Shown: positions 1-64,000, counted from the stretch's first letter. The stretch is 64,000 bases of DNA from an uncultured Acidobacteriota bacterium (GCA_963784065.1 CAWAQA010000004.1:341087-405086), one strand, 5' to 3'. Notes: generated from the letters alone by a model not told the origin. Numbers and translations are program-made.

Positions 1-1673
1 GACGAGCTGCGTCTTGGCCTGCCATGCAAGCTGGAACAGCGTGGGATAAAACGCGAGCGCCGGCACGACGAGGCCGAGCGTCATCATCGTCAGCCGGAAG
101 GCCTGCGAGCCGTGACGATACCGCCCCTTCAGCCGGCCGCCGTACATGGCGAGCACGACGGCCGCCGTCAACGCCAGCATCAGCGGAAGCTGTGCGGGAG
201 CCGGGGTGCCCGCCACCAGCTGCCACGCCACCAGCGGTGACGCCCACAGGACGATAGCGACCGCGCGGAGTTGCCAGTTGCGGCGCGGCACGATCCACGG
301 GATTGCCGCGAGCCGGATGATGAGGACGGCGCAGGCCAGCACCGTCGCATGCCAGACGATGAATCCAACCTGCAGAGCGATGCGAGGCGTGTCCCAGGGA
401 TGCAGGGAGAAGTGCAGCAGGTCGAGCGTCGTGTTGGCGATCGTGTCGCGGACGAGCGCCTGGTGGCCGAGCAGAAGGAGGGCGAGGCTGATGCCGGCGA
501 TCAGCTGCGTTGCAAAGTAGGCGATGACCCGCCCGGCCGTCGTCAGCGGGCGGCGGGCGTGCCAGAGAACCACGCGCGCCCCTTCGACGACGAAAAAGCC
601 GAGCGCGACCAGCCCGCCCGCCGTGACGGCGGTGAGCAGGAAGTCGAATGGCGACGTGAGGAGCGGCCGCAGCAGCGACGAGGCATAGGCCACGCTCGAA
701 AAGAGAGGAGAGCTGGACCAGTCGGCCGGCGAGGCGAGCAGGAGCACGAGACGGGTGCCGATGATAGCGAGCGCCGTCAGGATGACGGCCGTTGCGTAAC
801 GTGGCCGGGCGTCATGACGCCGGGCGGACCGGCTGCCGGCTGCATTGCGCCAGTCGAGAAGCGGTCCGACCATGACCACCAGCGTCAGGGCTATCGCGAC
901 CAGCGTGAGGGAGAGCGTGGCCCGGCGCCAGCGGTCGCGTGCGCGGGCGAGCTCCGCGGGATCCAGACGGGCGCGTCAGCAGCGGCTGGCCGGACGGGGC
1001 CGTGACTTCGAAGGCAGAGGCATCGGGTGTCGTCCGGACCGCCCTCGAACGGCAGGTCGATCGAAACAGGGGCAATGCGGGTGGGAAAGGAGGTCCCAAT
1101 CGCCCGCTCGGCGGCGATCGTACCGACCCGCCGCTCGGCGTCATCGGTGACCGGGGTGACATAGACCAGGCGCAGGCCCAGGGCTCCAGGGGCGAAGAAC
1201 CAGGCCTCGTCCCCGCCCACCCGGTCGGCCGGCAGCTCCGAGGGCCGCCCCGCCCAGGCCAGGGGCGCGCCGTCGGCGGTGTGGGCGGTGACCGCCAGCT
1301 CCCCCTCGTCTTCCCGGGTCAGGACCGCGGCCGCGGCGTCAAAAAGCCGGCGGGCTGCGGCCGAATCGCCCTCGCTGGCCGCGAGCAGCGTCGTGGCGTC
1401 GGCCACGCCTCCTGCGGCGTCACGCAGTTCGCGAGACATCGCATCCAGGTCCCGCCGCACGGCGGCTTCGACGCGTGAGCGTGCGGCGGCGTCGTCCCGG
1501 CCCAGCATCGCCCACTCGAGCACACGGCCGGCCGCGAACACGACGAGGGCGCAGAGCAGCGCCCGCCGCCGCCATTCGCGCCAGCCGGCGGCTCGGGAAA
1601 GTATCGGATCCGCCAGGCGCTCCGGGCAATCGCACGACTTCAAGAATACAATTGCCGTATCCCCATGTCGCAT
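1..1673 (-). pseudogene. polytopic membrane protein of unknown function (possibly sensor-type). This is the 5' part of a gene that runs off the left edge. The frame changes twice, near 1030 and 970.
   Basis: ORF 891..1673 gives a plausible N-terminus: one TM segment (ALLCALVVFAAG) followed by a ~200-aa soluble region. A short stretch in ORF 812..1162 (DASAFEVTAPSGQPLLT) links it to a third frame. My own translation of that frame on the minus strand is stop-free from about 966 to 1. It encodes several hydrophobic helices (LTLVAIALTLVVMVGPLL, AVILTALAIIGTRLVLLL, FLLTAVTAGGLVALGFFVV, IAYFATQLIAGISLALLLLG, VGFIVWHATVLACAVLIIRL). The ORF track omits it because no stop lies inside the window. Confidence 0.5.
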
Positions 1674-2667
1674 CGCGAGCTGCTGAAATCCGCATTGAAG
1701 CGGGGCGCGCTGATTGCCGCCGCCAACTGGCAGGTCACCCTTGTCCAGGCCACCAGCGATTCGCTGTTCAAGGTGCTGGTGGCGGTGCCGATCGTCGGGG
1801 GCGTGTTCCTTGTGGCGCTGGTGCTCGGCACCGAACCCGATGCCCTGATGTCGCTCGAGTGGCGCGACATGGCTGCGACGACTGTGGCCGCGCTGTTCTC
1901 ACACCCCGTGGTGCTCGCTGCCTTCCTCCTCGCCGTCGGCGTGGTCGGCGTCGGGGGCTCCCTGTTCGTCTTTCTCGTGAAGGCGGGCACTGTCGCGGTC
2001 CTCGTCAGGAGCGAGCGCGAAGCCGGGCCCATCGAAGATGCGCCGGTGCACATCGAGAGCCTGATGCGCGCGGCCCGCTTCTCGGTGGACTTCTTCATCG
2101 ACTCGTGCGGACGCTCTCTTCTCGCGATTCGCGCGCCTCGGGCTGATCCTGATGGCCGTGTATGCCGCTTCGGCGACGACGTACCTTGGCCTCGTGATGG
2201 CCAGCCGCTCGGCGGGAGAAAGCTGGGGCGTGACGGCGCTGTTCACAGCCGGTTTCGTGGCGTGGATCACGGTCGTCAACCTGCTGTACCTGCTGACGCA
2301 GATCGTCGTCGCCGCCGAGGATTGCAGCGTGGCCGCCGCGGCGCCGCGCGTCGTCGCGTTCCTTCGGCACGAGCGGGCCATGGTAATTCGCGTGTTCGTC
2401 GTGATTCTGGCGCTCGTGGTCGGCGCGACGGGGGCGTCCGTCGTCGCCGCTGGGCTGCTCAGCCTGATCTCATTCGTGCCGTTCGTGGGCCTGGCCGTCC
2501 TGCCGCTGCAACTGGTGGCGTGGGTGCTGCGCGCGCTGGTGTTCCAGTACATCGGGCTCACGTCGGTCGGCACGTATGTGAAGCTCTATCGTTCGTTTGC
2601 CGGCCAGGTTGTCGAGGGGCGGGTGAAGCCGGCCCCGGCGTACGGAGCGATTGTCAGGGCCGGCTGA
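1665..2667 (+). pseudogene. polytopic membrane protein, function unknown. One frame break near 2105.
   Basis: ORF 1665..2738 is hydrophobic and protein-like up to ...SVDFFIDSC. The sequence then continues in the frame of ORF 2152..2667 (DALFSRFARLGLILMAVYAASATTYLGLV... through four more TM helices). The remainder of the first ORF is Arg/Gly-rich noise. Confidence 0.5.
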
Positions 2668-2688
2668 CGGCTATCCCCGGTAACCACC

Positions 2689-3930
2689 ATGCCCGACTAC
2701 AGCAGTTTTCTCTCGCCCATGGGGCGCCAGCTCCATGAATCCGCCATCCGCCGCATGGGCACCGTCGTGGCGAAGACTCACGATCTCGTGTCGTTCGCGG
2801 CCGGTTACCCCGACTCGAAGGTGTTTCCGTGGGACGACCTGCGGGCAATCGCAAGTGAGCTGCTGACCGGGACGGACGGCACCGTCCTTCAGTACGGGCC
2901 GACGCGCGGCCATCGTCCGCTGCTCGAGGCCATCCTCGGAGTCCTCGATGGGCGCGGGATCAAGGCCGACCTCGATGAATTGATGATCACCAGCGGCTCG
3001 CAGCAGGGGCTGGACCTCGTCGCGCGCGTCCTCATCAGCCCGGGCGACGTCGTGCTCGTGGAGTTGCCAACCTACACTGGCGCGATCGCGGCGTTCAAGA
3101 ACATGCAGGCCAACCTTGTCGGCGTCAAGCAGGACGAGGATGGCATCAACCTCGACGACCTCGACGCCGTGCTGCAGCATCAGCGTGCGGCGGGCCGGAC
3201 GGTGAAGCTGCTGTACCTGGTGCCAAACTTTCAGAACCCCACGGGCCTCCTGCTCAGCCTCGTCAAGCGTCAGCGTCTCATTGAGTGGGCCGAGAAGCGG
3301 GACGTGCTGATCCTCGAAGACGATCCCTACGGCGTTCTGTATTTCGACGACGTGGCGGCCGAGGCGGAGACGCGGCCGATTCGTGCAGACGACGACCGCG
3401 GGCGCGTGATCTACCTGAGCACGTTCTCCAAGACGCTCGCCCCGGGGTTCCGGGTCGGCTGGGTGGCGGCGCCGCCGGCGCTCATCGAGCGGTTCGATAC
3501 GGCCAAGCAGTCGATCGATCTCACGTCGGGCATTCTCGACCAGCGCATCATCCTCGAGGCCGTGCGCCGCGGCGTGCCCGGGCGGATCGCCCCGCAGCTT
3601 CGCGAGCTCTATCGACGGAAGCGCGACGTCATGGAGCAGGCGCTTCGGGCCGAGCTCGGCGATCGCCTCACGTGGCCTGCGCCGAAGGGCGGGTTCTTCC
3701 TCTGGGCGACGCTGCCGGCGGGGCAGGACGACCTGTCGCTGCTCGAGCGCGCTCTGGAGCAGCGGCTGGTGTTCGTGATCGGCAGTGCGTTCTACGTGGA
3801 CGGCTCGGGGCACGACAAGATCCGGCTCTCATTCTCGGCGCCCCCGGCGGAGCGCCTCGTCGAGGGCGCGCGGCGGCTGGCCGCAGTCCTGCAGCCGGCG
3901 GTTGGTGCAGTGGGGGTCAGACCCCGGTGA
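2689..3930 (+). CDS. PLP-dependent aminotransferase, fold type I (class I/II, 2-aminoadipate/aromatic transaminase-like)
   Basis: Intact 413-aa ORF with family hallmarks: ITSGSQQGLDL, LVELPTYTGA, LLYLVPNFQNPTG, DVLILEDDPYG, and YLSTFSKTLAPGFRVGW (PLP-lysine context). Confidence 0.85.
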   Translation: MPDYSSFLSPMGRQLHESAIRRMGTVVAKTHDLVSFAAGYPDSKVFPWDDLRAIASELLTGTDGTVLQYGPTRGHRPLLEAILGVLDGRGIKADLDELMITSGSQQGLDLVARVLISPGDVVLVELPTYTGAIAAFKNMQANLVGVKQDEDGINLDDLDAVLQHQRAAGRTVKLLYLVPNFQNPTGLLLSLVKRQRLIEWAEKRDVLILEDDPYGVLYFDDVAAEAETRPIRADDDRGRVIYLSTFSKTLAPGFRVGWVAAPPALIERFDTAKQSIDLTSGILDQRIILEAVRRGVPGRIAPQLRELYRRKRDVMEQALRAELGDRLTWPAPKGGFFLWATLPAGQDDLSLLERALEQRLVFVIGSAFYVDGSGHDKIRLSFSAPPAERLVEGARRLAAVLQPAVGAVGVRPR

Positions 3931-3959
3931 TGAACGTGGCAATGGGTTGAGTCGCCCCA

Positions 3960-5069
3960 CTACAGGGGCCTGACCCCAAGGATCCCCGCCAGAAGCAGGA
4001 CCGTGGCCAATGCCCCGGCCACCTGCCACGCCAGCTGCGTGCGCTTGCGGAGCGTGAGCGTGCCGAGGCACAGGACCAGGGCGGCGGCCATCAGCGCCCG
4101 GCGATACAGCTCCTCGAAGGTCGCGACTTCTTGTGTGAGGTCCGATCGCCGGGTCACCCGATCGAGAATCCTGAACGCCACAACCCGGTCGGGCTCGGTG
4201 CCGACCTCGAAATACTCGCCTCCGCCCGCTGCGGCGATCCGCGCGAGCGACGGCCGGTCGAGCGCCGAGCGGACGAGCGGCGGCGGACGTGTGCCGTCGG
4301 CGCGCGCCGGCTCCGGGATCATTCCGCCGCTGGTCGTGCCGATGCCCACCACGAAGACGGGGATATTGCGCACGCGCGCGGCCTCGAGCGCCGTCGCCAC
4401 GGTACCGCTCCACGCCTGGCCGTCGGAGATCACGACGAACGCCTTGGGATTGCCGCTGGCGCCGAACAGCTGTTCGTCCTGCTCCACGATCCGGAGTCCC
4501 CAGCGGATCCCTTCCTCGATGTTCGTATCCCACGTCGGCACGCTTTCGAGCGGGAAGGGCGAACGATCGCCGAGGTGATCGAGGAAGAAGAAGAGCGCGT
4601 TGGGATCGGTCGTGAGCCGTACCTGAGGCGCCGCGAGCTGCGCGAACAGGGCGAGCGCCACCCGGTCGCCCTGCCAGCTCAGTGCCTCCGCGAACGTGCG
4701 AAGGAACTGGATCGATCGCCGCCAGCGGTCGGGACGGACATCGGCGACATACATCGACGCCGAGCCATCCTGAAGGATGACGATGTCCGTGTTCGCTTTC
4801 CGCAACGCCGACACGCGCGCCTGCGGCCGCGCGAGCGCCGCGATGCCGAGGCTGGCCGCGACGATCACCGACAACCAGAAGGCGAGGTCGCCTGCGACCG
4901 CATAGCGTTCGCGAACCGGCACGATGCGACGCGCCACGAGGCGGCGGACGTCGGCGCGCCGGCGGAGGAGACGCCAGCCGAGGAGCAGCAGCAACGCTGC
5001 CGGAACCGTCAGCAGCCACAGCCAGACAGGCTCGGCGAAGCGGAAGGTGTCCAATTCGACTCGCGGCAC
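3960..5069 (-). CDS. VWA domain-containing membrane protein (BatA/BatB-like)
   Basis: Two N-terminal TM helices (VWLWLLTVPAALLLLLGW; LAFWLSVIVAASLGIAALA). MIDAS-type start DIVILQDGSASM. FVVISDGQAW and VFVVGIGT. A C-terminal TM helix. Last gene of the MoxR/DUF58 operon. Confidence 0.8.
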   Translation of the reverse strand: MPRVELDTFRFAEPVWLWLLTVPAALLLLLGWRLLRRRADVRRLVARRIVPVRERYAVAGDLAFWLSVIVAASLGIAALARPQARVSALRKANTDIVILQDGSASMYVADVRPDRWRRSIQFLRTFAEALSWQGDRVALALFAQLAAPQVRLTTDPNALFFFLDHLGDRSPFPLESVPTWDTNIEEGIRWGLRIVEQDEQLFGASGNPKAFVVISDGQAWSGTVATALEAARVRNIPVFVVGIGTTSGGMIPEPARADGTRPPPLVRSALDRPSLARIAAAGGGEYFEVGTEPDRVVAFRILDRVTRRSDLTQEVATFEELYRRALMAAALVLCLGTLTLRKRTQLAWQVAGALATVLLLAGILGVRPL

Positions 5070-5078
5070 ATGGACGCC

Positions 5079-5766
5079 TCAGCCCTTGCGCGTACCGGGA
5101 GGGGCCTTTGCCGCGTCGCCGCCGGTCGGCCTGCTGTCCCCGCTGTCCAGCGGGATGTAGAGCTCGAACCGTTCCTTCGTCGCCGCCGTTGGCGCGCCCT
5201 GCTCACCAAGATCGACGTCCGCGCCTTTCTCTGGAACCGCCGCCCGGCGCCCCTTGGCCACGTCATCGCGGAACCTGGCCGTGTACTCGTAGTTGTAAGC
5301 CGCGTCGCGCAGCCACGTGTCGGCCCGGAGGACCGTCCCGTAGCGGGCGACGGCGGCGTCGAGCGCCTGTTGCGTCGCGGCCCGGTCCTTCGCCTGCGCC
5401 AGGCCGGCGCGATACCCGGCGTTCGCCACCACCAGTTGCAGGTCGGCGGGAGGCTCGTCTTCCGCGGCGGCGGCGTCCGCCTGGCCCGGCGCGAGGCTGT
5501 CGAACTCGTCCTGCCAGTACCGGAGGGCGGCCTGCCGGACACGCATCTCGTCCCGGAAAGCCGCTTCCGAGCATCGGCACCCAGTCGGCATACCCCGCGT
5601 AACCGGCGGCCGCATCGAGGCTTTGTTGCGCCCTGTCGAACTGGAGCGTGGCCGTCTGCTCGTGTACGTCTGCGAGATGTCCTTCGATCCGCGAGACGGC
5701 CACGCAGAGGGCGCCCGCCGCGGCAAGGATCAACGCGGCCAGCACGAATGCGGAAAACCTCTTCAT
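5079..5766 (-). pseudogene. small membrane-anchored protein of the Bat-like operon, function unknown. One frame break near 5572.
   Basis: Starts MKRFSAFVLAALILAAAGALCVAV in ORF 5263..5784. It reads sensibly to ...YAGYADWVPM, then continues in ORF 5079..5726 (SEAAFRDEMRVRQAALRYWQDEF...YNYEYTARF...). It sits between the two VWA genes, where BatC-like proteins are found. Confidence 0.45.
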
Positions 5767-5805
5767 ATCGTCACCTCGGCACAATCCCCTGCGAGCTGAG
5801 ACACA

Positions 5806-6903
5806 TCATGGAAACGTTCGAAACGTCCGGACGCCAAGTGTCAGCAGTGCCGCCGACAGCCACAACGCCACCGCGGCAAGGAGGTACGCGGCGAACCGCG
5901 GACGCTCCACGCTGTATTCACGCACCTCAATCCGTCCGGGAGACAACCGATCGATGTCCGCAAGCGCACGCGTGATGGAGGCGTCGTCGTACGCGGCGTA
6001 AAAACGGCCGCCGGTCCGCTCGACCGCGTCCTTCCACAGCTTGTCCTCGCGGATCTCGCCTTCCTTGAGATTGAAGGCGGTGCGAACCATGTAGACCGGA
6101 ATACGGAACGCACGCGCATCCGCGATCAGCCGTTCGAGCGGGCGGCCCTCCTGGTTGAGTTCCGAGTCGCGACCGTCCGTGAAGAGAATCATCAGGTTTC
6201 CCGACGCGTTGACGAAGTCGAACGTCCGGAAGAGCCGCATGCCCTGGTCGATACCTTCGACAATCGTGGTCCCGAAATCATTGAACCGCCCCCATTCGCG
6301 CGGATCGCTGATGAGACGGATGCTCAACCGGACGCTCTGATAGTCGGTCGTGAACGGCGTGACGACGTATGCCTGGTTGCCGAACTGGATGAGGGCCACG
6401 AGATCGCGATAGGGACCGTCGATGCGGCGCTGGATGAAGTACTCGGCCGCGGCGACAGCCGTGAAAAAGGTCGACTCTCCGCGCGTGCGGAGGCTGGTGG
6501 CGCCGTATTTCATCACCATGCTCCCCGATGCATCGACGAGCAGGGCGACGCGGCGACCCGGGTACGACACCTCTTCCTGCGTGAAGCCGGTATGCGGATC
6601 GGCGAGCGCGATGGCGAAGAGCGGCAACCCGGCGAGGAACAGCAGCATCGGCAGGTGCCGCAGCCCGGCGAGCGGCGCCCGGCGAATGACGGGCAGAAGG
6701 GCGGGGAAGACGACGTGCGTGCGGCCTGCGCGGCTCGTCCGCGCCACGCTGACGATGAGCGCCAGCGCCGCAATCGCGAGCAGTATGACGAAGACCAGCA
6801 GCGCCGCGCGCGGTTCGGCGAACCGGAGCTCGCTCCAGCGCGTGCGCAGCCCTTCATCGGCAACGGCGCGGACCGCGATCAGCAGGCTCTGGAGCTGGTC
6901 CAC
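5806..6903 (-). CDS. VWA domain-containing membrane protein (BatA-like)
   Basis: Only the C-terminal 366 codons of ORF 5806..7572 look like protein. The likely GTG start at 6903 lies right after the upstream stop (6905-6907). TM helices LLVFVILLAIAALALIV and LPMLLFLAGLPLFAIAL. MIDAS motif LLVDASGSM. ILFTDGRDSE. C-terminal TM AAYLLAAVALWLSAALL. Confidence 0.8.
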   Translation of the reverse strand: MDQLQSLLIAVRAVADEGLRTRWSELRFAEPRAALLVFVILLAIAALALIVSVARTSRAGRTHVVFPALLPVIRRAPLAGLRHLPMLLFLAGLPLFAIALADPHTGFTQEEVSYPGRRVALLVDASGSMVMKYGATSLRTRGESTFFTAVAAAEYFIQRRIDGPYRDLVALIQFGNQAYVVTPFTTDYQSVRLSIRLISDPREWGRFNDFGTTIVEGIDQGMRLFRTFDFVNASGNLMILFTDGRDSELNQEGRPLERLIADARAFRIPVYMVRTAFNLKEGEIREDKLWKDAVERTGGRFYAAYDDASITRALADIDRLSPGRIEVREYSVERPRFAAYLLAAVALWLSAALLTLGVRTFRTFP

Positions 6904-6904
6904 A

Positions 6905-8077
6905 TCAGAACCCCGTGAACGACCGCGCGATCGACTGCACGGCGCGCATCGGCCAGCGCGTGTACACGCGCAGCCGCCGTACGGCGCTGGAGCCGTCCTC
7001 GAGCGCGGCATCGAGCGCAGCCTTGTCAACGAGCCCATTGCGACTGTAACGAGCCGCACTGAAGGTCTGAAGCGCATCGCCAAGCTGACCGAGCGAGAGG
7101 CGCATGCGCGATCCCGACGTGTAGCCGTGTCCAAGGTGCGCGGCAAGCACCTTCGGCGTGGTCGGCGCCGACAGCACCGCACGCCGGCGGCGGACGAGGC
7201 CGGTGCGGATGACAAGCTGGCCGTCACGCTCCGCCACGTCGCGGGCCACGAAATCCTGCGAGACGCGCCGCCCGGCTGCGACGGCCGCCGCAATCCTGAA
7301 CACAGCCAGCGCCCGCCGGACGAGCGCCGGCGTCCAGCCGCCCCGCGCCTCGGTCCTGACGTCGGACAGGGCCCCCAGACATCCACGCAGCAGCGACGGC
7401 ACCGGGAGCGGCAGCGGCACGTCTTCCTTGCGGCGCAACCGCCGCGCGCCGCGCGCCACGGCCAGGCCGGCGAACAGCGCGGCGAAGGCGAAGCAGATGC
7501 CGGCGGCGACGAGCGCCGCGGATGAGCGGAAGCGGCGTGACGCGCTCGCCGCAAAAGTGTCGGCCGAGGCATCGCGGATGTCAGTCGCGTTGCGCGGGAC
7601 GAGCGAGAGGATGCGCATGGGGAGCGGCGGCAGCACGTATCCCAGATCGCGGCCCTGTGCGCCGCCGCCCGGCGCCTGCACGTTGTACGTGACGGTCAGC
7701 GCGGGAATCGTCACGTCCTGCCCGAAGAACCCTTCGCTGAGCAGGCGGACGTCGTAGGCGAACTGGACGTACCGCCACGGAGCTGCCACCACATCCTCGA
7801 GCCGCTGGCCGCTGACCACCTCGAACGGCGCTATCGACAGCGCGCCGGGCTCGAGCTGGTTGACCGCCGGGACGACGGTGATGCCGTTGGTTTCGATGAC
7901 GCCGCACGTGAGCAGGAGCATGAACCGCTCGCCCACGCCGACCGCGCTGGTATCGGTCTTCCACCAGCAGCGGATTGGATCGGACCGGACGCCGGCCTCA
8001 CCTTGGGCAGACGCGATCGGCGTCCCGATCGCGAGCATCGACGCCACCGCCGCCCCCGTGATCCAGTGTTTGTCCAT
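6905..8077 (-). CDS. BatD-like secreted/membrane protein (hypothetical)
   Basis: Intact 390-aa ORF. Signal peptide MDKHWITGAAVASMLAIGTPIASAQ. Central TM AALVAAGICFAFAALFAGLAV. It lies between the DUF58 and VWA genes. I see no diagnostic motif, so the call rests on context. Confidence 0.5.
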   Translation of the reverse strand: MDKHWITGAAVASMLAIGTPIASAQGEAGVRSDPIRCWWKTDTSAVGVGERFMLLLTCGVIETNGITVVPAVNQLEPGALSIAPFEVVSGQRLEDVVAAPWRYVQFAYDVRLLSEGFFGQDVTIPALTVTYNVQAPGGGAQGRDLGYVLPPLPMRILSLVPRNATDIRDASADTFAASASRRFRSSAALVAAGICFAFAALFAGLAVARGARRLRRKEDVPLPLPVPSLLRGCLGALSDVRTEARGGWTPALVRRALAVFRIAAAVAAGRRVSQDFVARDVAERDGQLVIRTGLVRRRRAVLSAPTTPKVLAAHLGHGYTSGSRMRLSLGQLGDALQTFSAARYSRNGLVDKAALDAALEDGSSAVRRLRVYTRWPMRAVQSIARSFTGF

Positions 8078-8080
8078 CGC

Positions 8081-9052
8081 TCACATCTTCCGAAGGCGCC
8101 GCTCCGCGGCAAACGCCGCCAGCGCCGTTTCCATTTCCCACCGATCGAGCCCGACGCGCACGACGTCCAGGCCGGCGCCGCGCGCCATCCGGATGACGTC
8201 CTCCTGCCAGGCGCCGACCCGATCGCCAAGGCGGTGCAGTTCGCGCCGGGACAGGACGCGCGTTTCCCCGGTCTCCACGTCGAACGCCTCGATCCAGCCG
8301 GCGGACACGTCTGGCAGCTCGTATGCGAACCGCACGTCGGCCATCAGGAGGAACACGTCGTGCACGGCATTCAACGACGAGAGCTCGGCGATGAGCTGCG
8401 CCGCGCCGGAAAAGAGGAAATCGGAGATGACCGGGATCATCGCCGATTTCCGGAGCTGGCTCTCGATGGCGGTCGCGATCGCCGAACTTCCGTGGCCCGG
8501 GCCTTCGGGATGCGCTCCGGCAACGGGCAGGGCGCGCGCCGTGTGTCCATCGTGGCCGATCGTGACGCGGTTCGCAACGGCGTCACGGTAGAGGTCCAGG
8601 CAATACAGCAGGTGCGAGCGCCCGATCCGGGGACGCGCCGCGGCGACCGGCTGCAGCGCGCCATCGAAGGCGACGAAGCCGAACATGTCCTGGAAGAACG
8701 TGGCGGAGAGTCCCACTGCGGCCACGCCGCGTGCGATGGCGGTGGCGATGGTCAGGCCGTCGAGGCCGCAGCGCGTCGAGAGCGACGCGTCGGCGACGGC
8801 GACGATCGTCGCGGTGCTGTCCTGCTCGAGCTCGCGCGTGACGAGCGGACTGAAGTTCGTGATCGACGACTGCGCCCAGTCGATCGACGTCACGCGGTCG
8901 CCGGGCTGCCAGTCGCGCAGGCCGACGAAGTTGAAGCCGCCACCCTTGAACACGCTGGCATGATCGCCGAGCGTGAACTCCTTCATTCGCTTGAGGATGA
9001 ACAGCTCGATCTCGGCGATCTCGCTCAACGTGACGAGCGTGTCTCCGGTCAC
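8081..9052 (-). CDS. DUF58 domain-containing protein (MoxR-associated)
   Basis: Intact 323-aa ORF with the DUF58 core FKGGGFNFVGLRDWQPGDRVTSIDW. It overlaps the moxR stop by 4 nt. Confidence 0.8.
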   Translation of the reverse strand: MTGDTLVTLSEIAEIELFILKRMKEFTLGDHASVFKGGGFNFVGLRDWQPGDRVTSIDWAQSSITNFSPLVTRELEQDSTATIVAVADASLSTRCGLDGLTIATAIARGVAAVGLSATFFQDMFGFVAFDGALQPVAAARPRIGRSHLLYCLDLYRDAVANRVTIGHDGHTARALPVAGAHPEGPGHGSSAIATAIESQLRKSAMIPVISDFLFSGAAQLIAELSSLNAVHDVFLLMADVRFAYELPDVSAGWIEAFDVETGETRVLSRRELHRLGDRVGAWQEDVIRMARGAGLDVVRVGLDRWEMETALAAFAAERRLRKM

Positions 9053-10107: not shown

Positions 10108-10121
10108 GAGGGGAGGGCACA

Positions 10122-11427: not shown

Positions 11428-11453
11428 AGTATAATAGCGCGTCCTTACGGCCT

Positions 11454-53213: not shown

Positions 53214-54210
53214 ATGACACTCCGCCTCTCTGCCGCGTTCGTCGTGTGCGCGGTGATCCTCGGTTTCACGGCGTCTGCTCAGGAGGTCGAGGTACGCGCG
53301 CAGTGGATCCAGGCGACCACCCTGCAGTCGCCAGAGTCGATCAGGCGGATGGTCGCCACGGCGGCCAGCAACGGCATCAACACGCTGTTCGTTCCCGTGA
53401 GACCGCAGAGTTCTGGCTTCGACTCGCTGGCCGAGACGATTGCGGCGGCGCAGCGTCCGCGGGATGCGCGTGCACGCGTGGCTCGACGTGAACCGTGCCG
53501 CGAGTGCCAGTGAACTGCCTCCGTCCCGCGACCACCTCATCTACCAGCATCCTGAATGGTTGATGGTCCCGCGGGAGCTGGCTCCGGACCTGCTGGCCGT
53601 TGACGTCAGAAGTCCCGAGTACCTCGGCCGCCTCGCGCGTTGGACGCGCGCCAATGCGGCGCGCCTCGAGGGGTTGTACGTGTCGCCCCTGCACACCGGG
53701 GCGCACCTGCAGATCGCCGCAACGGTCAAGGACCTCGTCACGCGTTATGCGATAGACGGGCTCCACCTCGATCACATTCGCTTCCCAGGCCCCGACTTCG
53801 ACTACAGCCGTGCGGCGATCGATGCGTTCCGCACCGAAATCCGCGGGCGCCTCACGGCGGCCGAGCGTGCGCGCATCGACAGCGTCGAGGCGATCGACCC
53901 CTTCGCCTACCCCGAGGAGCTGTCGGAGGCATGGCGGTTGTTCCGCCAGACCCAGCTCACCGCGCTCGTCACGCGGCTTCGAAGCACGGCGAAAGCCATC
54001 CGTGCCAGCGTCGTGGTCAGCGCCGCCGTCGTGGCGGACCCGTTGCTCGCCGCCCGTGACGGCTTCCAGGATTGGCGGACCTGGCTGGACAACGGGTTCA
54101 TCGACGCGTTGTGCCCGGTGCCGGACAACTCGCCGCATGCGCCGTCGGAGGCGATCATCGCGGACGTCCGGGCCCTCGCCGGCTCCAAGCCGGTCTGGAT
54201 CCGCAACTAG
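53214..54210 (+). pseudogene. secreted glycosyl-hydrolase-like family 10 (GHL10/DUF187-type) protein. One frame break near 53455.
   Basis: The signal peptide MTLRLSAAFVVCAVILGFTASAQ and RAQWIQATTL...NGINTLFVPVR lie in ORF 52827..53513. GMRVHAWLDVN...HPEWLMV...YVSP...VKDLVTRYAIDGLHLDHIRFP lies in ORF 53440..54210. The family call is from memory of the motif pattern and is unverified. Confidence 0.55.
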
Positions 54211-55328: not shown

Positions 55329-56278
55329 TACGGGACCGTGAACGGGGAACCGCCGCGGCCGCGGCCGCCTGGCAATTGGAGCGGTGATGCGCCGCTGCCC
55401 TGCGGCAATCCGCGTCCGCCGCCACCCAGGCCAGGCGTCGGCAGACCTCTCCCTCGTCCTTCCATGCCTGGCAACTGCGTGCCCCGTCCGCCCGGCGTCG
55501 CCGTGCCGGGGACGCCGCCGCCCGCCTGCTGGTTGGCTTCGGTCGCGACGAACGCCCACTCGTTGTATTTGTTGCGGCCGTTGAAGAGGCGCAGTGAGGT
55601 CTGCTCGCTCTTGCTGACGACACCCAGGACAGGTCCCGTTGTCCCCCCGGTACCTGGGCGCGTCACGCGATTGAAGCCAGACGCGGCCGGGCCCGTTCCG
55701 CCGCCGGCGCCCAATCCGAGGGTCGCGCCCGTGCCACGCCCACCGGTCGGATCCGTGCCCTGGCCGGTGCCAAGTCCCGTCCCGCGGCCTGCGCCGGCCC
55801 CCAATCCCCCGCCGCTCCCCAATCCCCCGCCGCTCCCCAATCCTCCGCCGCCCCCCAATCCTGCTCCTGCCCCTAACCCCGCGCCGCCCCCTAACCCTGC
55901 TCCTGCTCCGCGGCCGGGGACCACCGGCGCAGTCATCTGGCCTGGCACTGGCGTGCCGACCGAGATGATCTGGAACTCGCCGTCCGCCGTCATCGGGTCC
56001 TTGTACTTTTTCCGGAGGAACTTCTCGTTGACGAGGACGTCAACGCTCGGCGGGAACGCGCCGCGACTGCGCTGGTAGAGCGCGACGGCGCGCGAGTACT
56101 GCAGTCCGCGGAATACGAGCTCTTCTTCGCGCTCGCGCCGGGCGAGCGTCCCCCACGCGGGCAGCAGCATGCTGAGCGCGATGGACATCACGCTCAGCAT
56201 GATGAGCAGCGCAGCCATCGCGAAGCCGCGCTCGCTACTAGAGAACGATCGTCGTGGTGCCGGTTCCCGTGCGCCCAT
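55328..56278 (-). CDS. Gly-rich pseudopilin-like protein with a hydrophobic N-terminal helix (last gene of the pilus/T2SS-like operon)
   Basis: Intact 316-aa ORF. ...SSERGFAMAALLIMLSVMSIALSMLLPAW resembles a prepilin leader plus helix, but has Ala where the conserved Glu5 would be. Then LVFRGLQYSRAVALYQ and FLRKKYKDPMT, and long GLGxGG and GGRG tracts. The start at 56278 overlaps the upstream gene by 41 nt. Confidence 0.55.
   Translation of the reverse strand: MGAREPAPRRSFSSSERGFAMAALLIMLSVMSIALSMLLPAWGTLARREREEELVFRGLQYSRAVALYQRSRGAFPPSVDVLVNEKFLRKKYKDPMTADGEFQIISVGTPVPGQMTAPVVPGRGAGAGLGGGAGLGAGAGLGGGGGLGSGGGLGSGGGLGAGAGRGTGLGTGQGTDPTGGRGTGATLGLGAGGGTGPAASGFNRVTRPGTGGTTGPVLGVVSKSEQTSLRLFNGRNKYNEWAFVATEANQQAGGGVPGTATPGGRGTQLPGMEGRGRGLPTPGLGGGGRGLPQGSGASPLQLPGGRGRGGSPFTVP
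55799..55906 (-). repeat. 18-nt tandem repeat, 6 units, encoding (G-A/G-G-L-G-x) hexapeptides
   Basis: Plus-strand units: ccccaatcccccgccgct (twice), ccccaatcctccgccgcc, ccccaatcctgctcctgc, ccctaaccccgcgccgcc, ccctaaccctgctcctgc. Confidence 0.85.
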
Positions 56279-57552
56279 CCCGCAGTATCACTCTCACCGA
56301 GACAGTCTTTGAGCCGGTGCTCGAATAGGTGAAGGTCGCCGAGTTCGTGCTGGTGACCACGTTCGGGCTAGTGCCCTCGAACGTCCACTCATAACTGATC
56401 ACATCGCCGGACGCGGCGCCGCTGACCGATGCCGTCGCGGTGACGGTGAGTCCCGAACCGTTCGCCGTGACGGCGACTCCGACCACGCCGCGAACCTGGA
56501 CAAGCTGATCCGCCGTCGTCGTCTCGCCGTTGATGTCTGTTGCGACGAGGCGCGCCGAGAAGGTTCCCGTTGTGCCATACGCGTGCGTCACCGTGGCGGC
56601 GCTGGACAGGTTCCCGAGGTTGATGGTTTCGCCGTCACCGAAGTCGAGGCGCGCCGACGTCAGATTGCTGCCCGTGGCGACCCGGGTTGCCGTGAACGTC
56701 ACCAGTTGGCCGATACCAACATTGGAGCAGGCGGCGGTTCCCACGGCACACGTCAGCGTTACCGACGGGCCTGTACCGCACGGTGACCGTGAATGTGCCC
56801 GTAATCGCACCGACACGCGCCGTCACCTCGCTCTGGGCGGTCGTCGCCAGCGTCGTCCGCGCCTCACCAATGTCGCTCGTAATGGCGGTCGTGGCGCCGA
56901 GTGTGCCCTGGGTTGCGCTGAACACAACGGGAATGCCGGGCAACGCCCGGCCGCCTTCGCCGATCACCGTGGCCAACAGTTCCACGGTCCCCCCGGTAGA
57001 CGGCACGCTTGCCGGCGTGGCGCGGAGCGCGACGACGCCCGTCGTGCCGATCGCGGCCGTGCCGACGGCGATCGTGACGACATTCGTTCCCGTCGCAGGA
57101 GCGGGCGTGCCGTTCGGCGGAGGCGTCGTCGTGCCGCCAGCTCCGGTGGTACCCGATGTGGCGCGGATTTCCGCGGTCCCGGATGTGGTTCCGGTGAACA
57201 TCGTGACGGCCACGCCGTTCCGGGTCTGGGTCTCGACCGGGTTGACGGTACCGAGGTTCGTCGAGAAGCGAACCGTCGTACCGTTCTGCACCGGCGTGCC
57301 GCTCGACTCGGCGACAAATGCCTGGATCTCCGTCGAACCGCCGATGGGCAGGACGCTGATCGGCGCGCTCACCGAAATCGTGGAGCTTGTCGGGGCAAGC
57401 AACGGCACCGAGTCGCACGCGCCGGCCGCGATCGCCGAAGACACGACTGCGACGAGCACTGCGGCACGCCGCTTCCATGCGCCGGCCCGGCGAACACCGT
57501 CGGTCATGACCATCGAGGTACCTGCGATCACCACACTACCCTTGAGTTTCAT
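56238..57552 (-). pseudogene. surface lipoprotein with bacterial Ig-like (Big) and PKD-like domains. One frame break near 56790.
   Basis: The lipobox ...VAVVSSAIAAGAC and Ig-like repeats (TEIQAFVAESSGTPVQNGTTVRFSTNLGTV; TVELLATVIGEGGRALPGIPVVFSATQGTLG) lie in ORF 56635..57552. ...GTFTVTV continues as TGPSVTLTC..., followed by PKD-like repeats (FDFGDGE-type LDFGDGETINLG...THAYGTTGTF; YEWTFEG...TFTYSSTGSKTVSVRV) in ORF 56238..56816. Confidence 0.7.
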
Positions 57553-58460: not shown

Positions 58461-60943
58461 CGGACCACGACCATCGGAACAGGCGCGAACACGAGCGGGA
58501 CCGGTGTGCCGCGCGGCCCGGTGCCGGCGCCGGTCAGCGTCAGATTGCCGGAGCCACCACCCACTGCGTCGAACAGGATGGCGGCCAGCAAGCCGGTCCC
58601 GGACACACCCGTGGCATCCCCCGCACGCACGATGGCGATGTCGATCCGTCCCGCTGCCGCGTCCACCTGCTGCGTGAATGTGGCGTTCACGCCGCCGGAG
58701 CGCATGAAGCTGCCCTCCTGGATGGCGCGCACGCGCAGCGCCGACGGATTGAACGTGATCGTCAGCGTCGCTCCGGACACCATCGATGCGCCGGTGATCG
58801 AGACGGGTACCGTGTATGGACCGCCGCCGACGCGGAAGTCGGTGCCCGGCGGCGAGAGGAAGATCTGGCCCCCTCCGGCCGCGGTCGCACCAACGTTCGA
58901 TGCGGGCGTCCCTGCGGCCTGGGGCGTCGAGCCTGGCGGTGTCAGCGCAGAACCTGGCTGCTCAGTGGGCGCCGGCACCGGCGGAACGGTTGGTGTCGGC
59001 GTACCCTGCCCAGGGGTGGCGGGAGCAGTCGTCGTGCCGGGAATGGGCGAGCTGCCCGGCGGAACCTGCGGGACGGGGCCACTTCCCGTGGGCAGCACAG
59101 GCTGACCGGCTACCGGCGCGGCGCGGTGCGCCAGCCGCAGGAGCCGGAGGAGAAGCCGGCGGAGGAGCGATGTCAGGCTGCGCGGCGATCAGCGGCGGCG
59201 GACCCCCGAGGCCCAGCGCCTGCTGTGTGCCGATAAAGATCGGGCTCACATCGGTCTGGGTCAGCTCGTGCGTCCGTACGATCCGCGGCGTGAGCAGCAT
59301 GATGATATCAGTCTGATCAACCTCCGTGATCTCCGTACCAAACAGCGAGCGCAGGATCGGGATGCGCATGAGACCCGGAAATCCCCGCATCGTTTTTCGC
59401 TCGTTGTCGTCCAGCAGTCCTGCCATCAGGTTGGACTCGCCGTCACGCAGCCGCAGCCGCGTGTTCACGCGTCGGGCGTTGAATGACGGTAACGCTTGAC
59501 CGCCGACCGTGGTGTTAGGACCGAGCGAACTGCTCTCGACCAGGACGTCGAGGATGATCTCGTTCTCGAACGTCACACGCGGTGTCATCTCGATGATCAC
59601 GCCCACGGTCCGGTAGTTGAACGAGGTCAGCGGGTTGAAGCTTGCCCCGCCCTGGGCCACCGGTGTGAAGACCGTCGAAGGGACCGGGACTTCCCGCCCG
59701 AGATTGAGCGTGATCTTCTGCCCTTCGGCGCCTCGAAGTTGCGGCTTGGCGATCTGCCTGGTGCCGATATCGGTCTCGAGGAAACGCAGAACGGCGGACG
59801 GCACCGCCATGTAGAAGTCGGCGGTCGAGACGCCGCGGGTGATGGTATTCAGGTTGAACGGCGTCGACGTCACACCCGCGGCGGTGGGGGGATCGGTGTC
59901 GTTGCCGGGCGTGGCGCCCGTGATCCCTCGCTGCTCGGGCGAGAACGCGAGGTTGACGGCGTACTCCGACAGGTTGATGCCGAATTCCTTGACCCTGCCC
60001 CGGTTCACCTCGAGGATCTGGACGTCGATGATGATTTCCGAGCGCGGATTGTCGTTCGCCTCGATCATCTTTTCGATGATCGACACGACGTTCGCGGTCC
60101 CGCGCACGGTGATCGTGTTCGCCGTCTTGTTCGCGGCCAGCACCGGCTGCACGGCGATCGCCGGGATGCGGATGACCTGGTTGAGCGTCTGCACCAGCTC
60201 CGTCGCGTCGGCGTGCGAGATGAAGAAGGTGCGGATCACCTGCTCCTCGTACGCCGCGCGCTTCTGCGCGTTGTCCGGGATGATCATGATGGTGCGCGGG
60301 TTGATCACCTTGTAGAACAGCGTGTTCGCGCCCAGGATCTGCGTCAGCGCTTCCTCGAACGTGACGCCGCGCAGGTTCACCGTGTACATCCGGTCCTGGA
60401 AGTCGCGCTCGTAGCTGATGTTGATCCCGGCCGCCATGCCGATGGAGTTGAGGATGTCGCGCAGGCTGGAATTGTTGAAGATGACGTCGATCGGCTCGCG
60501 CGACGCCGGGTTCAGCAGCGGCTGCGACTGTCTCGCGACGTCGCGCATCTGCTGGATCGACGGTTGCGGCCGCGAGGCTTCCACCAGGTCGCGGATGCGC
60601 CGCTCCATCTCCAGTACCTTCGCCGACACGAGGCGGTTCGACGGGTCGAACTCGCTGGCGCGGCGGTATTCGCGCAGCGCCTCCTCGAGCTGCCCGCGCG
60701 CCTCGAGGACACGCGCCTGATCCAGGTGCAGGTTGGCGGCATTGATCATCGCGCGCTCGAGCGCGATCTGGTAGTCGGCGCGTTCGGGGTCTTCCTGGAC
60801 GGCACGGCGATAGAAATCCACTGCCGTGTCCCAGTCACCCGCGCGCGCCGCGCTCTCGCCGCTGCCGAACGCGCGGCTCGCCGCGCACCCTGCCCCCAAG
60901 GCGGCATCACGATCACGATCACAATGGCTAGTCGATGCATCAT
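58457..60943 (-). pseudogene. secretin (GspD/PilQ family) with N-terminal TPR region and C-terminal cohesin-like domain. Two frame breaks (about 60895 and about 59100).
   Basis: The lipoprotein-like start MMHRLAIVIVIV lies in ORF 60746..60943. ORF 58962..60899 carries the rest of the N-terminus and the core. It has a TPR-like part (DWDTAVDFYRRAVQEDPERADYQIALE...) and N-domains (IDVIFNNSSLRDILNSIG; VIRTFFISHADATELVQTLNQV). Its secretin core is IIIDVQILEVNR, SFNYRTVGVIIEMTPRV, ESNLMAGLL and GFPGLMRIPILRSLFG. After a Pro-rich linker there is an about 150-aa domain (PYTVPVSITGASMVSGATLTITFNPSALRV...GRIDIAIVRAGDATGVSGTGLLAAILFDAVGGGSGNLTL) in ORF 58457..59098. Confidence 0.85.
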
Positions 60944-61520
60944 TGCCCTGAGAGCCGGATCACCTGCCGTCCGCGGCCGTCGGTGTAGGCCATCTCGACG
61001 TTGTCTGCGCCAATCCTCAACAGACGATATCGGCCTTCGATGATATCGCCTTCCCTTCCCGTCAAGACGGTCCCGCGGCCGTCACTCAGGATGGCGACGC
61101 GGCCCGCCTGAGCCGGAGCGTTCAGCAGGCCGATGAACCGCAGCGGGATCGGCGGCGGCGGCGGCGGCCCCTGCGGCACCGGCGGTCCCGTGGGGACGAC
61201 CCGCGGGGCGGGCGCGGCGCCGGCGCCGGGGCCCGGAGGCGCGGGGGGCGGCGCCTTCACCTCGAAGCGGAACAGGTTGCGCTCCGCCACGGGAGCGTCT
61301 TTCGCGGGCCGCGTTCAGCGCCTCGAGCTGGATGTCCGTCACCGGCGCCTGGCCGCCCCTTCCCGGCTGCTGCCGGGTTCCGGTCGTGCCGGATACTGGA
61401 TTGGACGGTGCGGCCGAGGTTCCGGCCGGGGTGTCGCCTCCCCGCAGCGTGATGACGAGAACCAGGCCGCACCACGAGCGCGCCGAGGACGGCGAGCTGC
61501 TTCTGCGTCTTCGACGCCAT
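60940..61520 (-). pseudogene. PilP-like / GspC-like pilus assembly protein. Two frame breaks.
   Basis: MASKTQKQLAVLGALVV is the membrane anchor in ORF 61257..61520. APVTDIQLEALNAA lies in ORF 61082..61342. ERNLFRFEVKAPPP...IPLRFIGLLNAPAQAGRVAILSDGRGTVLTGREGDIIEGRYRLLRIGADNVEM lies in ORF 60940..61290. Its position between pilO and the secretin supports the call. Confidence 0.5.
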
Positions 61521-62104
61521 CAGGCCGCGTCCCGGAAGTAGGTGGACATCTCCAGCGTCACCACTTGGGCGCCGGTGTTCTCCGCGCCCGCCGCGAGCTC
61601 GACGTTGTCGATGACCACGAACTCCGGGGACGCTTCGAGCTGGTGGATGAAGGTGCGCATGTCCTCGTAGGCGCCGCTCAGAACCATCCTGATTCTCAGA
61701 CGGCGGAGCGTGCTCTCGCGGATTTCGACTTCCTCGTACTGATCGCGATCGAACGTGAGGTCCGATTCGCGGGCGAGCTGCCGCAGCCGCAGCTGCGTCA
61801 GCCGCCGCGCCCCCGACAGGTCCGGCGGCAGCACGTCCTTGTAAAAGGTAGCGAGCTCGGTGGAGGCGCGGTCTTTACCGGTCAGCGTGCCATTGGCCTG
61901 CGCGAAATCCGCCTGCGCCGCCGTCAGTGCCTGCCCCGCAGCGTCGTTGCGTTGCTCGACGTTGGCGACGCGCTGCGCCAGCGGATACACGAACAACGCG
62001 TACACCAGCGCGTTCGCCACGAGAGCGACGACCAGCGGCACCACGACCCGCCGGTGCTCGGCGAGCACGCGCCGCCCCAGAGACGTGCCGTGAGGGCTGC
62101 TCAT
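61520..62104 (-). CDS. pilO: type IV pilus/T2SS inner-membrane assembly protein PilO-like
   Basis: Intact 194-aa ORF. One TM (VVVPLVVALVANALVYALFVY), a coiled-coil region, then the ferredoxin-like end LRIRMVLSGAYEDMRTFIHQLEASPEFVVIDNVEL. The gene is start/stop-coupled on both sides. Confidence 0.65.
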   Translation of the reverse strand: MSSPHGTSLGRRVLAEHRRVVVPLVVALVANALVYALFVYPLAQRVANVEQRNDAAGQALTAAQADFAQANGTLTGKDRASTELATFYKDVLPPDLSGARRLTQLRLRQLARESDLTFDRDQYEEVEIRESTLRRLRIRMVLSGAYEDMRTFIHQLEASPEFVVIDNVELAAGAENTGAQVVTLEMSTYFRDAA

Positions 62105-62685
62105 GGCTGGGGTGCCTCCTGCTGGGCTGTGCGCGACGGCGGCTGGTAGACGCCTTCGATGATCGCCTCGAGCAGCCCCTCCTCGTTGGTCTGCGTCTCG
62201 GTGGCGAGCACGTTGTGGAACGCGCCGGTCGTCTCGAGCGCGTCGATGAACGCCTCGAGGTCCTCGGCGCGCCGCGCGTCCACGGCGATGCCGATGATGA
62301 ACACGCCCTTCTCGAGGCGCGGCTGCACCGCCGTGATGCGGACGTCGTCCGGGAGCGTCGCCTCGAACTGCGTGAAGAGCTCCGTCCAGGAGAAGGAGCG
62401 CTGATCGATGAGGTCGTTCGCCTCGCGCGCCGCGCTCGCCACCGTCTCCAGCTCCGTCGGGTTGATCTGCGCGCGAATGCGTGACGCTTCCGACCGCAGC
62501 CGCGCCGCCTCGCGCTCGGCTTCATCCGCGTTGGCGCCCAGCGTCTGCTGACTGGTCATCAGCGTGAGGATCCTGATGCCGTTGAACAGCGTGATCCCGA
62601 TGACGACGGCGGCGAGCGTGGACAGCGCGACCTGGACGGCGCGGACGTTGTAGAACGGCTTCGTCGCGAGATTGGTCCGGATCAT
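62101..62685 (-). CDS. pilN: PilN-like (fimbrial assembly) protein
   Basis: MIRTNLATKPFYN is the typical PilN N-terminus. TM ALSTLAAVVIGITLFNGI. WTELFTQFEATLPDDVRITAVQP. ATG 62685 overlaps the pilM stop. Confidence 0.75.
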   Translation of the reverse strand: MIRTNLATKPFYNVRAVQVALSTLAAVVIGITLFNGIRILTLMTSQQTLGANADEAEREAARLRSEASRIRAQINPTELETVASAAREANDLIDQRSFSWTELFTQFEATLPDDVRITAVQPRLEKGVFIIGIAVDARRAEDLEAFIDALETTGAFHNVLATETQTNEEGLLEAIIEGVYQPPSRTAQQEAPQP

Positions 62686-63651
62686 CAGGCCGCCACCGCC
62701 TCCCGGCGCGTCCGCAGCAGCATGCCGACGAGCGGCGCGAGCAGATCCATCAGCTCCGGCGTGACGCCGATGCGGTCGCGCAGCGACGCGGCGCGCGTCG
62801 GATCGATCGGTTCCACGCGTCACGCCGAGGCGCTCCTCGAGGCTGCGCCGCGCCGCGTCGACGACGCCCGGCACACGGCCGGTGCCGCCGAGCAGCACGC
62901 GCGTGAACCCCTGTCCCGTCAAGCCGGTCCTGGTAGTACATCGCCGTCTGGTGCACGAGGTCGGCGAGGATGTCGTCGCCTCGCCCTGCGGCCGGCTGCG
63001 GAAGAAGATGACGTGCTCGCCGCGCATGATGGCGAGCGAGGTGTACTCGGGCTGCATGTGGACGACGAGCCAGTCGCCCGCGGGGGCGTCTGTCGAGGCC
63101 AGGAACAGGTTGATGACGCTGAGCGTCGCGAGGTCCACGAGCCCGGCATAGGCGCCGGCTTCGTCGCAGACGCCTTCGTACTCGCGCACGACGTCGCGGC
63201 GGGCCATGGCGACGACGAACTCGGCGCCGGCGGCGCCGCGCGCGCCCGGGCTATACGTCACGCACGCATCGTCGATCGGGAACGGCGCCGACTTCTTCAG
63301 CTGCCAGCGTACGAGCTGGTCGAGGTCCTCGCGGCGGGCGGGAACCTGGTCGAACCGCAACAACGAGACGCGGGCGGCGACGTCGGGGATGACCAGCGCG
63401 ACGCGGCGCGGCCGGCTGCCCAGGCGCTCGAACACCGCCTGCAGCGCCGCCACGACACGCGGCCGATCGGCGAGGTTGTGCGCGGTGAGCGACGGTACCA
63501 CCGCCCCGGCGGGGAGCGGCTCGCTCGCATAGCCCTGCACGACGAGGTCGCGCCCGCGCGCGCTCATCGTGGCCACGGCGACGCGCTCGGGCGAGATCTC
63601 GACCGCCGCGTCAGGAGGCGGACTGGCGAGCCAGGAGGCGAGCAGGCTCAT
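62685..63651 (-). pseudogene. pilM: PilM-like actin-fold pilus assembly ATPase. Three frame breaks.
   Basis: MSLLASWLASPPPDAAVEISPERVAVATM...VALVIPDVAARVSLLRFDQVPARREDLDQLVRWQLKK...LVDLATLSVINLF...YTSLAIMRGEHVIFFRSRP lies in the main frame. LVHQTAMYYQDRL lies in ORF 62750..62956. GFTRVLLGGTG is back in the main frame. The end VEPIDPTRAASLRDRIGVTPELMDLLAPLVGMLLR lies in a third frame (my own translation). Confidence 0.8.
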
Positions 63652-64000
63652 TCGACGAAGGTCACCTTGTTGATTTCGCGCAGGGTCGATCTGGCCCAGC
63701 AGCACCTTCTCGACCGCGGACTCGCGGAGGAACCGCATGCCTTCTTCGTGTGCCGCCTTCTTGATTTCGGACGCCGGGCGGCGATCGAGGATCATCTCAC
63801 GGATGCGATCGGAGAGATCCAGGAGCTCGCAGATGGCCGTGCGTCCCTTGAAGCCGGTGCCGCCGCATTCGATGCAGCCCGCGCCCTCGTAGAACGGTGT
63901 GCGACTGGGCCAGCGACGGCTCGAGCGCGGACTCCTCCAGCAGCTTCGGATCGACGCGGACCGCGCGCTTGCAGTGCGAGCAGATCAGGCGCACGAGCCG
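63648..64000 (-). pseudogene. GspE/PilB-family secretion ATPase, C-terminal end only (the gene continues beyond the right edge). Two frame breaks.
   Basis: VRLICSHCKRAVRVDPKLLEE lies in ORF 63797..63994. FYEGAGCIECGGTGFKGRTAICELLDLSDRIREMILDRRPASEIKKAAHEEGMRFLRESAVEKVLLGQ lies in the frame of ORF 62101..63795 and carries the tetracysteine Zn motif. The end STLREINKVTFVE-stop lies in a third frame, overlapping the pilM ATG as ATGA. Confidence 0.8.

Follow-up and report, generated by a model that had tools for sequence, protein, structure and literature searches.

Reading-frame breaks in conserved genes of an uncultured Vicinamibacterales bacterium are very probably uncorrected assembly errors

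In decaying genomes, such as those of Mycobacterium leprae and Sodalis, nonsense mutations account for a sizeable share of the inactivating lesions, and indels are accompanied by about tenfold more substitutions; reductive decay also yields deletions, insertion sequence (IS) insertions and relaxed substitution. Mutation in bacteria generally favors deletions and homopolymers. Genes read across two frames are known as well, with programmed frameshifting in prfB, dnaX and Euplotes and transcriptional slippage in endosymbionts occurring at conserved shifty motifs or long homopolymers, and at conserved positions. Gene-fragmenting indels are, in addition, a known trait of long-read assemblies (PMC12007338). 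Here, we analyze a stretch of 64,000 nucleotides from an uncultured Acidobacteriota bacterium (GCA_963784065.1 CAWAQA010000004.1:341087-405086; hereafter, the window), in which reading-frame breaks run through conserved genes, including those for lipopolysaccharide (LPS) transport and the Tol-Pal system. We consider it very probable that these breaks are uncorrected consensus indel errors of a noisy single-molecule-read (meta)genome assembly rather than mutations of the organism.

A first-pass annotation of the window, made from the sequence alone, had noticed that recognizable protein sequence jumps between frames inside single conserved genes, and this observation was confirmed by codon-usage segmentation, end-to-end profile matches and frameshift-aware alignment alike. 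Seven-state Viterbi segmentation (six frames plus non-coding), with the codon-usage model trained on seven long open reading frames (ORFs) of the window, returned a path of 156 segments, which are long and single-frame at 2.7-22.4 kb and crowded with same-strand frame switches at 27.8-50 kb and 56-64 kb. The translations stitched along this path are stop-free and span NCBIfam profiles end to end across the switches, as observed for TolQ, TolR, TolB (profile positions 6-418/418), Pal (2-103/104), YbgF, RecN (1-558/563), MiaB (1-435/437), LptF (1-347/347), LptG (1-348/351), XerD (3-286/290), LptB (19-239/239), and PtsI (1-564/565). The stitched proteins also match intact homologs along their whole length. 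Thus, the stitched TolB has 100% coverage of the best 120 of several thousand intact TolB proteins (99% for three of these), with 79-90% identity, and the stitched LptF plus LptG was compared with the 120 best-listed intact fused LptFG proteins (750-810 aa), reaching 98-99% coverage for all but one.

The breaks were located with a purpose-built protein-to-DNA aligner that permits one- and two-base frameshifts. The references for 22.4-56.7 kb were proteins called on two scaffolds that are syntenic with the window throughout and have every gene intact, namely, an ENA forest-soil scaffold (L081), covering ~22.5-38 kb of the window, and a farmland-soil scaffold (L084), covering ~34.4-56.7 kb. In a control with DnaE (1,189 codons, 70-88% identity), 36 of 37 alignments contained no frameshift, the exception being that with L080, which shows one nearby +1/-1 pair. 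Alignment to the L081 and L084 proteins revealed 79-80 events in 18 genes (Table 1), and other relatives supplied additional events in lptB and towards either end of the window, giving a curated total of 94 events in ~27 of the ~55 genes; about five further candidates (5569, 1638/1661, 33845, 33879, and 37692) are uncertain. Alignment breaks were found in each of the genes that the first-pass annotation had singled out, that is, lptB, lptF, lptG, tolB, pal, ptsI, miaB, and xerD, and its example sites, accgtc[t]gtacgg (22494-22506), gatccc[G]tacctg (28516), and ggcgtc[G]cagaac (34740, minus strand), are correct. Its figure of about 28 affected genes stands, whereas its 60-70 events fall about one third short, mainly because the ORF track does not reveal compensating events that lie close together and bring the frame back (nagB, parB, tolA, and the GH57 gene). 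Frame-restoring clusters at 51781-51906 (minus strand), 41037-41057 (plus), and 34582-34602 (minus) place 7-42 codons out of frame within ORFs that are seemingly intact; in the case of nagB, the ORF appears intact because three +1 insertions jointly restore the frame. Stop-to-stop ORFs of relatives were tried as references and replaced, since they gave rise to false "stops" and "frameshifts" where genes meet (e.g., accA/recJ) and in antisense shadow ORFs. A double filter, demanding both a codon-usage call and homology on both sides of a break, retained 52 events and was kept as a lower bound only, being judged over-strict because closely spaced pairs get dropped.

The events are distributed as unevenly as first described. 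Bins of 2 kb contain 0 to 15 events each, with an index of dispersion of 5.6 (chi-square p = 7e-22), and the longest gap, between 2,106 and 22,501, which includes dnaE, has a probability of ~2e-16 if the rate is uniform. The density is ~4 events per kb at 31-38.8 kb, zero at 38.8-41.0 kb, 5-6 per kb at 41-50 kb, and ~1 per kb or less elsewhere, such that the error rate in 31-39 kb and 41-50 kb would reach ~0.4-0.6% of bases. Within the long gap, guaA, dnaE, the aminotransferase gene, and accA-recJ show no frameshift when aligned to relatives; for 3.9-10.2 kb, where no orthologue was available, integrity refers to long ORFs and Pfam matches. A gene at 5079-5784 (minus strand), lacking a database match, displays a codon-usage frame switch at ~5569, a possible extra break by codon usage alone, which lies slightly beyond the 5.8-22.4 kb described as free of breaks in the first pass. 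Genes without a frameshift relative to L081 or L084 are present in the remainder of the window, too, and encode RpoN, HprK, RapZ, EIIA, HPr, a cupin, SSB, BFN, ParA, MurQ, NagK, a second beta-lactamase-like protein, and a 270-aa protein. Local GC content, which the first pass had proposed to correlate with indel density as a check, is not supported as a cause (Spearman rho 0.27, p = 0.14); GC varies between 64% and 71% along the window (68% overall).

Apart from the breaks themselves, the genes show no signs of decay. Across ~10,500 aligned codons of the window, there are zero premature stops, the lone "stop" in the second beta-lactamase-like gene being its natural terminator (55264-55266), and there are no large deletions or IS elements, with gene order and length as in the relatives. 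The repaired proteins are 75-98% identical to those of L084 or L081, which equals the identity between relatives for the same genes. For instance, LptFG, with 16 breaks in 2.3 kb, is 85% identical to L084, compared with 84% between L085 and L084; the corresponding values are 91% vs 91% for TolQ, 88% vs 82-84% for RecN, 86% vs 83-87% for MiaB, and 87% vs 82% for XerD. None of the lesion sites of the window is common to any of the relatives, and the L081 and L084 orthologues are intact throughout. The most direct comparison is offered by an independent JGI (Joint Genome Institute) short-read metagenome contig of 1,427 nt (L108), with 96% nucleotide identity to window positions 60463-61884. This contig lacks all three lesions predicted there from proteins, at 60906 (-1), ~61304 (+1), and ~61470 (+1), which argues against real lesions, as an independent sequence carrying the same indels had been named as the observation that would make them real. 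The sole further length difference between the two sequences is an in-frame 6 nt in a Pro/Ala-rich stretch, and the pilP-like ORF of the contig is intact (194 codons), with the customary ATGA overlap at the start of pilQ.

The lesion spectrum is simple. The 94 events comprise 73 one-base insertions (78%), 15 one-base deletions, and six two-base insertions, so that 88 are single-base indels, the lesion type recognized in the first pass; insertions together (79; 84%) outnumber the 15 deletions by ~5:1 (p = 1e-11). Nucleotide alignment to L081 or L084 placed 36 insertions, from 28516 to 53457, unambiguously at base level. The inserted bases (12 C, 11 G, 8 T, and 5 A) approximate the genomic composition; 29 have no identical neighbor, the other seven double an existing base, and no run of three or more includes any of the 36, consistent with the initial impression that long homopolymers are not involved. 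Deletions, likewise, are mostly located outside homopolymers. The codon phase of the insertions (15/12/10) is uniform, and the contexts of the lesion sites are heterogeneous, with no common motif.

To compare the window with other assemblies of the order, the same aligner was run on 19 loci classed as long-read, mostly Microflora Danica (MFD) metagenome-assembled genomes (MAGs), some labeled "uncultured Acidobacteriota" or similar, the rest being recognized by "contig_N" or "ctg" names, and on 16 short-read loci whose names point to MEGAHIT or SPAdes. For the MFD MAGs, Nanopore reads alone were assembled with Flye and one round of Medaka, and the authors examined low-coverage MAGs for Nanopore-associated errors, noting error-related loss of coding density (PMC12313526). 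The long-read loci contain 101 events, or 0.29 per kb (0 to ~1 per kb per locus), in proportions of 79 +1 to 20 -1 to 2 +2; one-base insertions make up 78%, just as they do in the window. In the short-read loci, there are 17 events in balanced proportions (10:6:1), at 0.057 per kb, roughly five-fold lower; these are mostly boundary effects of the stop-to-stop references. Among individual loci, L085 (ENA ERZ25039469 contig_61172), which is syntenic with the window, carries 16 frameshifts in 6,462 codons, 13 of them +1, at positions unlike those of the window, and about half of its ~9 resolvable insertions adjoin an identical base, although the sample is small. Three frameshifts are present in L082, a contig labeled 2x, and none in the near-identical L083, which comes from a 1.47-Mb contig.

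Could the frame breaks belong to the organism? A genuine and very recent mass pseudogenization, with ~94 real frameshifts in genes including lptB, lptFG, tol-pal, miaB, and xerD, would agree with the number of broken genes, the repeated breakage of several of these, and the regional clustering, and given that the relatives, save for the 1.4-kb contig, are 83-98% identical at the protein level, strain-private lesions are possible at 91 of the 94 sites. Nevertheless, such an event is very unlikely: premature stops, large deletions, and IS elements are all missing, amino acid divergence is not elevated even in the gene with 16 breaks, the 84% of insertions outside homopolymers contradict the expected bias to deletions and to homopolymers or simple repeats, the contig with 96% identity lacks the three lesions it covers, and joint loss of LPS transport and Tol-Pal is probably lethal for a free-living diderm. 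A variant of the same idea, in which a recent regional burst of non-homopolymer single-base insertions arose in a free-living Vicinamibacterales bacterium through an unusual insertion-prone process, with hits in envelope-essential genes tolerated or read through, is scarcely credible. If the sites were subject to programmed recoding (ribosomal frameshifting, transcriptional slippage, or RNA editing), this would explain why protein sequence is conserved on both sides of the breaks, where joining the frames would yield functional products. However, the contexts are random-looking and motif-free, the slippery homopolymers needed for transcriptional slippage are absent, the positions are conserved in no relative, and +1 and -1 events occur together, up to 16 per gene, with none across 20 kb; we regard recoding as a vanishingly small probability. 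Indels made in silico, for example by read simulation or by the deliberate addition of noise, would account for the random-looking base context and codon phase and for the lack of a homopolymer signature, but simple uniform noise gives neither the strong regional heterogeneity nor a 5:1 bias to insertions, and real Nanopore MAGs of the order show the same spectrum, leaving this origin with hardly any chance.

An artifact of another kind could result from the collapse of co-occurring strains, with both alleles of a single-nucleotide polymorphism (SNP) retained side by side to give a one-base insertion unlike its neighbor. This would account for the preponderance of insertions and for their avoidance of homopolymers; microdiversity is a reported problem for these soil assemblies (PMC12313526), and the alternative bases (GTC/GTG and GGC/GGG) that are found adjacent in the window at 34740 and 35000 are divided between the two relatives. 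Because strain SNPs concentrate at third codon positions, the insertions should then adjoin position 3, yet the observed phases put 73% of them in the two compatible slots compared with 67% by chance; doubling of SNPs at wobble positions is thus unsupported, the codon phases being indistinguishable from uniform, and the 15 deletions would be left unaccounted for. We consider strain collapse a minor possibility. Uncorrected consensus errors of noisy long reads, the reading already put forward in the first pass, agree with the lack of decay, the intact relatives, and the matching spectrum of the Nanopore MAGs. The underlying genes would then be intact and under normal purifying selection, with extra or missing single bases entering the consensus at a rate set by local consensus quality, ~zero over 2.1-22.5 kb. 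The source assembly would be long-read based, and the mosaic of clean and dirty regions would follow local read depth or polishing success; we infer low depth or poor polishing because the peak rate of 0.4-0.6% is near raw-read indel rates and the Nanopore relatives vary strongly from MAG to MAG. Several observations weigh against this explanation. An identical-base neighbor is found at only seven of the 36 resolved insertions, compared with ~50% expected (p = 6e-4), an avoidance of homopolymers that the explanation leaves unaccounted for; published Oxford Nanopore Technologies (ONT) and HiFi errors are homopolymer-associated, and those of ONT are deletion-rich (PMC12007338), whereas the window is dominated by insertions; and the near-identical independent sequence spans 1.4 kb only, that is, three of the 94 sites. 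PacBio continuous long reads (CLR) were considered as the source of the spectrum and dropped, given that deletions are reported to outnumber insertions in raw CLR data (PMC5964698); we therefore base no platform claim on the spectrum.

Table 1. Coordinates of the event-free stretch and of the frame-broken genes in the window (+1 and +2, one- and two-base insertions; -1, one-base deletions)
Feature	Coordinates	Strand	Events and support	Events vs L081/L084
Event-free stretch, 20.4 kb	2107..22500		aminotransferase, VWA/DUF58/MoxR genes, guaA, dnaE, accA, recJ, LptC-LptA-like 775-aa gene	
Large membrane protein, N-terminal part (~1,300 aa in L002)	1..1640	-	one-base insertions ~973, 1040, 1557; tblastn pieces in frames -2/-3/-2; 3/3 relatives	
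Membrane protein (378 aa in L002)	1593..2640	+	one-base insertion ~2106; 5/5 relatives	
lptB	22435..23172	+	one-base insertion (t) ~22500; 4/4 relatives, 10/12 flanking identities	
Ribosome hibernation factor HPF	24668..25230	+	one insertion ~24978-25040; frameshift-aware alignment	1
ptsI	28155..29944	+	one-base insertion (G) 28516; alignment and profile	1
ybgF/cpoB	31040..31930	-	31277 (+1), 31530 (+1), 31765 (-1), 31884 (+1); L081 YbgF aa 1-295/295, 82% identity	4
pal	31946..32530	-	32219, 32316, 32326 (+1), 32441 (-1); alignment and profile	4
tolB	32573..34000	-	33539 (+2), 33559 (+1), 33569 (+1), 33723 (-1); possible also 33845, 33879	4
tolA-like	33931..34700	-	compensating pair 34582 (-1), 34602 (+1); both L081 and L084	2
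tolR	34701..35164	-	one-base insertions 34740, 34831, 35000, 35094; alignment	4
tolQ	35171..35933	-	35399, 35559, 35593, 35851 (+1), 35726 (+2); both relatives concur	5
recN	36049..37740	+	37116 (+2), 37634 (-1); possible 37692; alignment and profile	2-3
miaB	37798..39196	+	one-base insertions 38084, ~38170, 38740; alignment and profile	3
parB	40643..41462	+	compensating pair 41037 (+1), 41057 (-1); 4/4 relatives	2
Glycoside hydrolase family 57 (GH57), 734 aa	41661..43863	-	42573, 42871, 42879, 42893, 43272, 43315, 43464, 43651; L084 GH57 aa 1-734/734, 83% identity	8
Fused lptF-lptG	43930..46271	+	13 +1, 3 -1; alignment and full-length LptF and LptG profiles	16
Beta-lactamase-family protein, 399 aa	46342..47541	+	46647 (-1); 46684, 46835, 47010 (+1); 93% identity to L084	4
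CehA/McbA-like metallohydrolase-domain protein, 547 aa	47612..49281	-	alignment and stitched-translation profile	11
xerD	49302..50200	-	one-base insertions 49581, 49630, 49805, 49860; alignment and profile	4
nagB	51397..52123	-	+1 insertions 51781, 51869, 51906 (within 125 nt); 3/3 relatives	3
GHL10-family glycosidase	53216..54210	+	one-base insertion ~53457; alignment	1
Big_1/PKD-domain protein	56238..57552	-	one-base insertion ~56775 (distant relatives, 46% identity); codon-usage switch 56722	
pilQ-type secretin with C-terminal extension	58466..60945	-	~59123 (+1, Pro-rich linker, approximate), 60906 (-1); 5 relatives	
pilP-like	60943..61524	-	one-base insertions ~61304 (C), ~61470 (G); relatives, both absent from L108	
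pilM	62690..63640	-	62817 (+1), 62923 (+1), 62969 (+2); 5-6 relatives	
pilB C-terminal end, truncated by window edge	63651..64000	-	one-base insertions 63693, 63898; 5 relatives, 83-86% identity	

The window belongs to the order Vicinamibacterales of the Acidobacteriota. Its DnaE ORF (1,223 aa, 13118-16789) has its top matches, at 86% identity, in Vicinamibacterales MAGs; exact-protein look-ups with DnaE and RpoN found no identical second copy on record, and transfer RNA (tRNA) and Rfam scans of the 64 kb gave no match. Three of the gene products were noted for their domain organization. In the best-studied systems, LptF and LptG are encoded by two separate genes; at 43930-46271 (plus strand), they form a single fused protein of ~770 aa, as they do in this order, with >100 intact homologs of 750-810 aa, many of them labeled "LptF/LptG" by JGI. 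Immediately 5' of lptB, at 20106-22433 (plus strand), a 775-aa protein combines an LptC domain (aa 62-180) with an LptA/LptD_N domain (aa 501-577), an architecture that suggests a fused LptC-LptA-like bridge component; its counterpart in L082 and L083 consists of 689 aa. In the PilQ-type secretin (58466-60945, minus strand), a Pro/Ala-rich linker is followed by a conserved C-terminal domain of ~130 aa ("QIFLSPPGTDFRVGGGPYTVPVSIT..."), and this extension is also found in five relatives.

The frame breaks are an assembly artifact and not a biological feature, and their value is confined to a warning for annotation and for statistics on pseudogenes or gene loss. ORF-based annotation of the window leaves about half of the genes fragmented, and, as was anticipated, many entries of the ORF list are fragments of genes or shadows driven by GC: with a minimum length of 100 aa, the mechanical list for both strands has 240 ORFs for ~55 real genes. 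Naive annotation would falsely imply the loss of LPS transport (lptB and lptFG), Tol-Pal, miaB, xerD, and type IV pilus genes. Checks of ORF integrity, coding density, or length ratio would miss the frame-restoring clusters, which in nagB amount to 42 wrong codons, and whatever is derived from such MAGs, be it pseudogene counts, coding-density statistics, protein clusters, or metabolic reconstructions, takes over the artifacts. The insertion-rich, homopolymer-avoiding spectrum differs from the usual target of polishing tools and may be of interest to tool builders.

The window can, finally, be set against the known systems with which we began. Like programmed +1/-1 frameshifting (prfB, dnaX, and Euplotes) and endosymbiont slippage, it encodes one functional protein across two frames, but it has neither a motif nor a conserved position and contains up to 16 sites per gene. 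With the decay of M. leprae and of recent insect symbionts, it shares the disruption of a large fraction of genes, several of these more than once, whereas it shows neither the nonsense mutations and deletions of reductive decay nor its IS insertions and relaxed substitution. A close match is found among the Nanopore MAGs of MFD (PMC12313526), where relatives from the same order display the same lesion spectrum at a rate that depends strongly on the MAG; the local density of up to 5-6 events per kb clearly exceeds the average of 0.29 per kb in the related long-read loci. Although its 84% insertions and avoidance of homopolymers depart from published ONT and HiFi artifacts, as weighed above, the window resembles long-read indel artifacts in that short indels shift the frame of conserved genes and create many apparent "pseudogenes," and in that relatives assembled from short reads or with better coverage carry the same genes intact.

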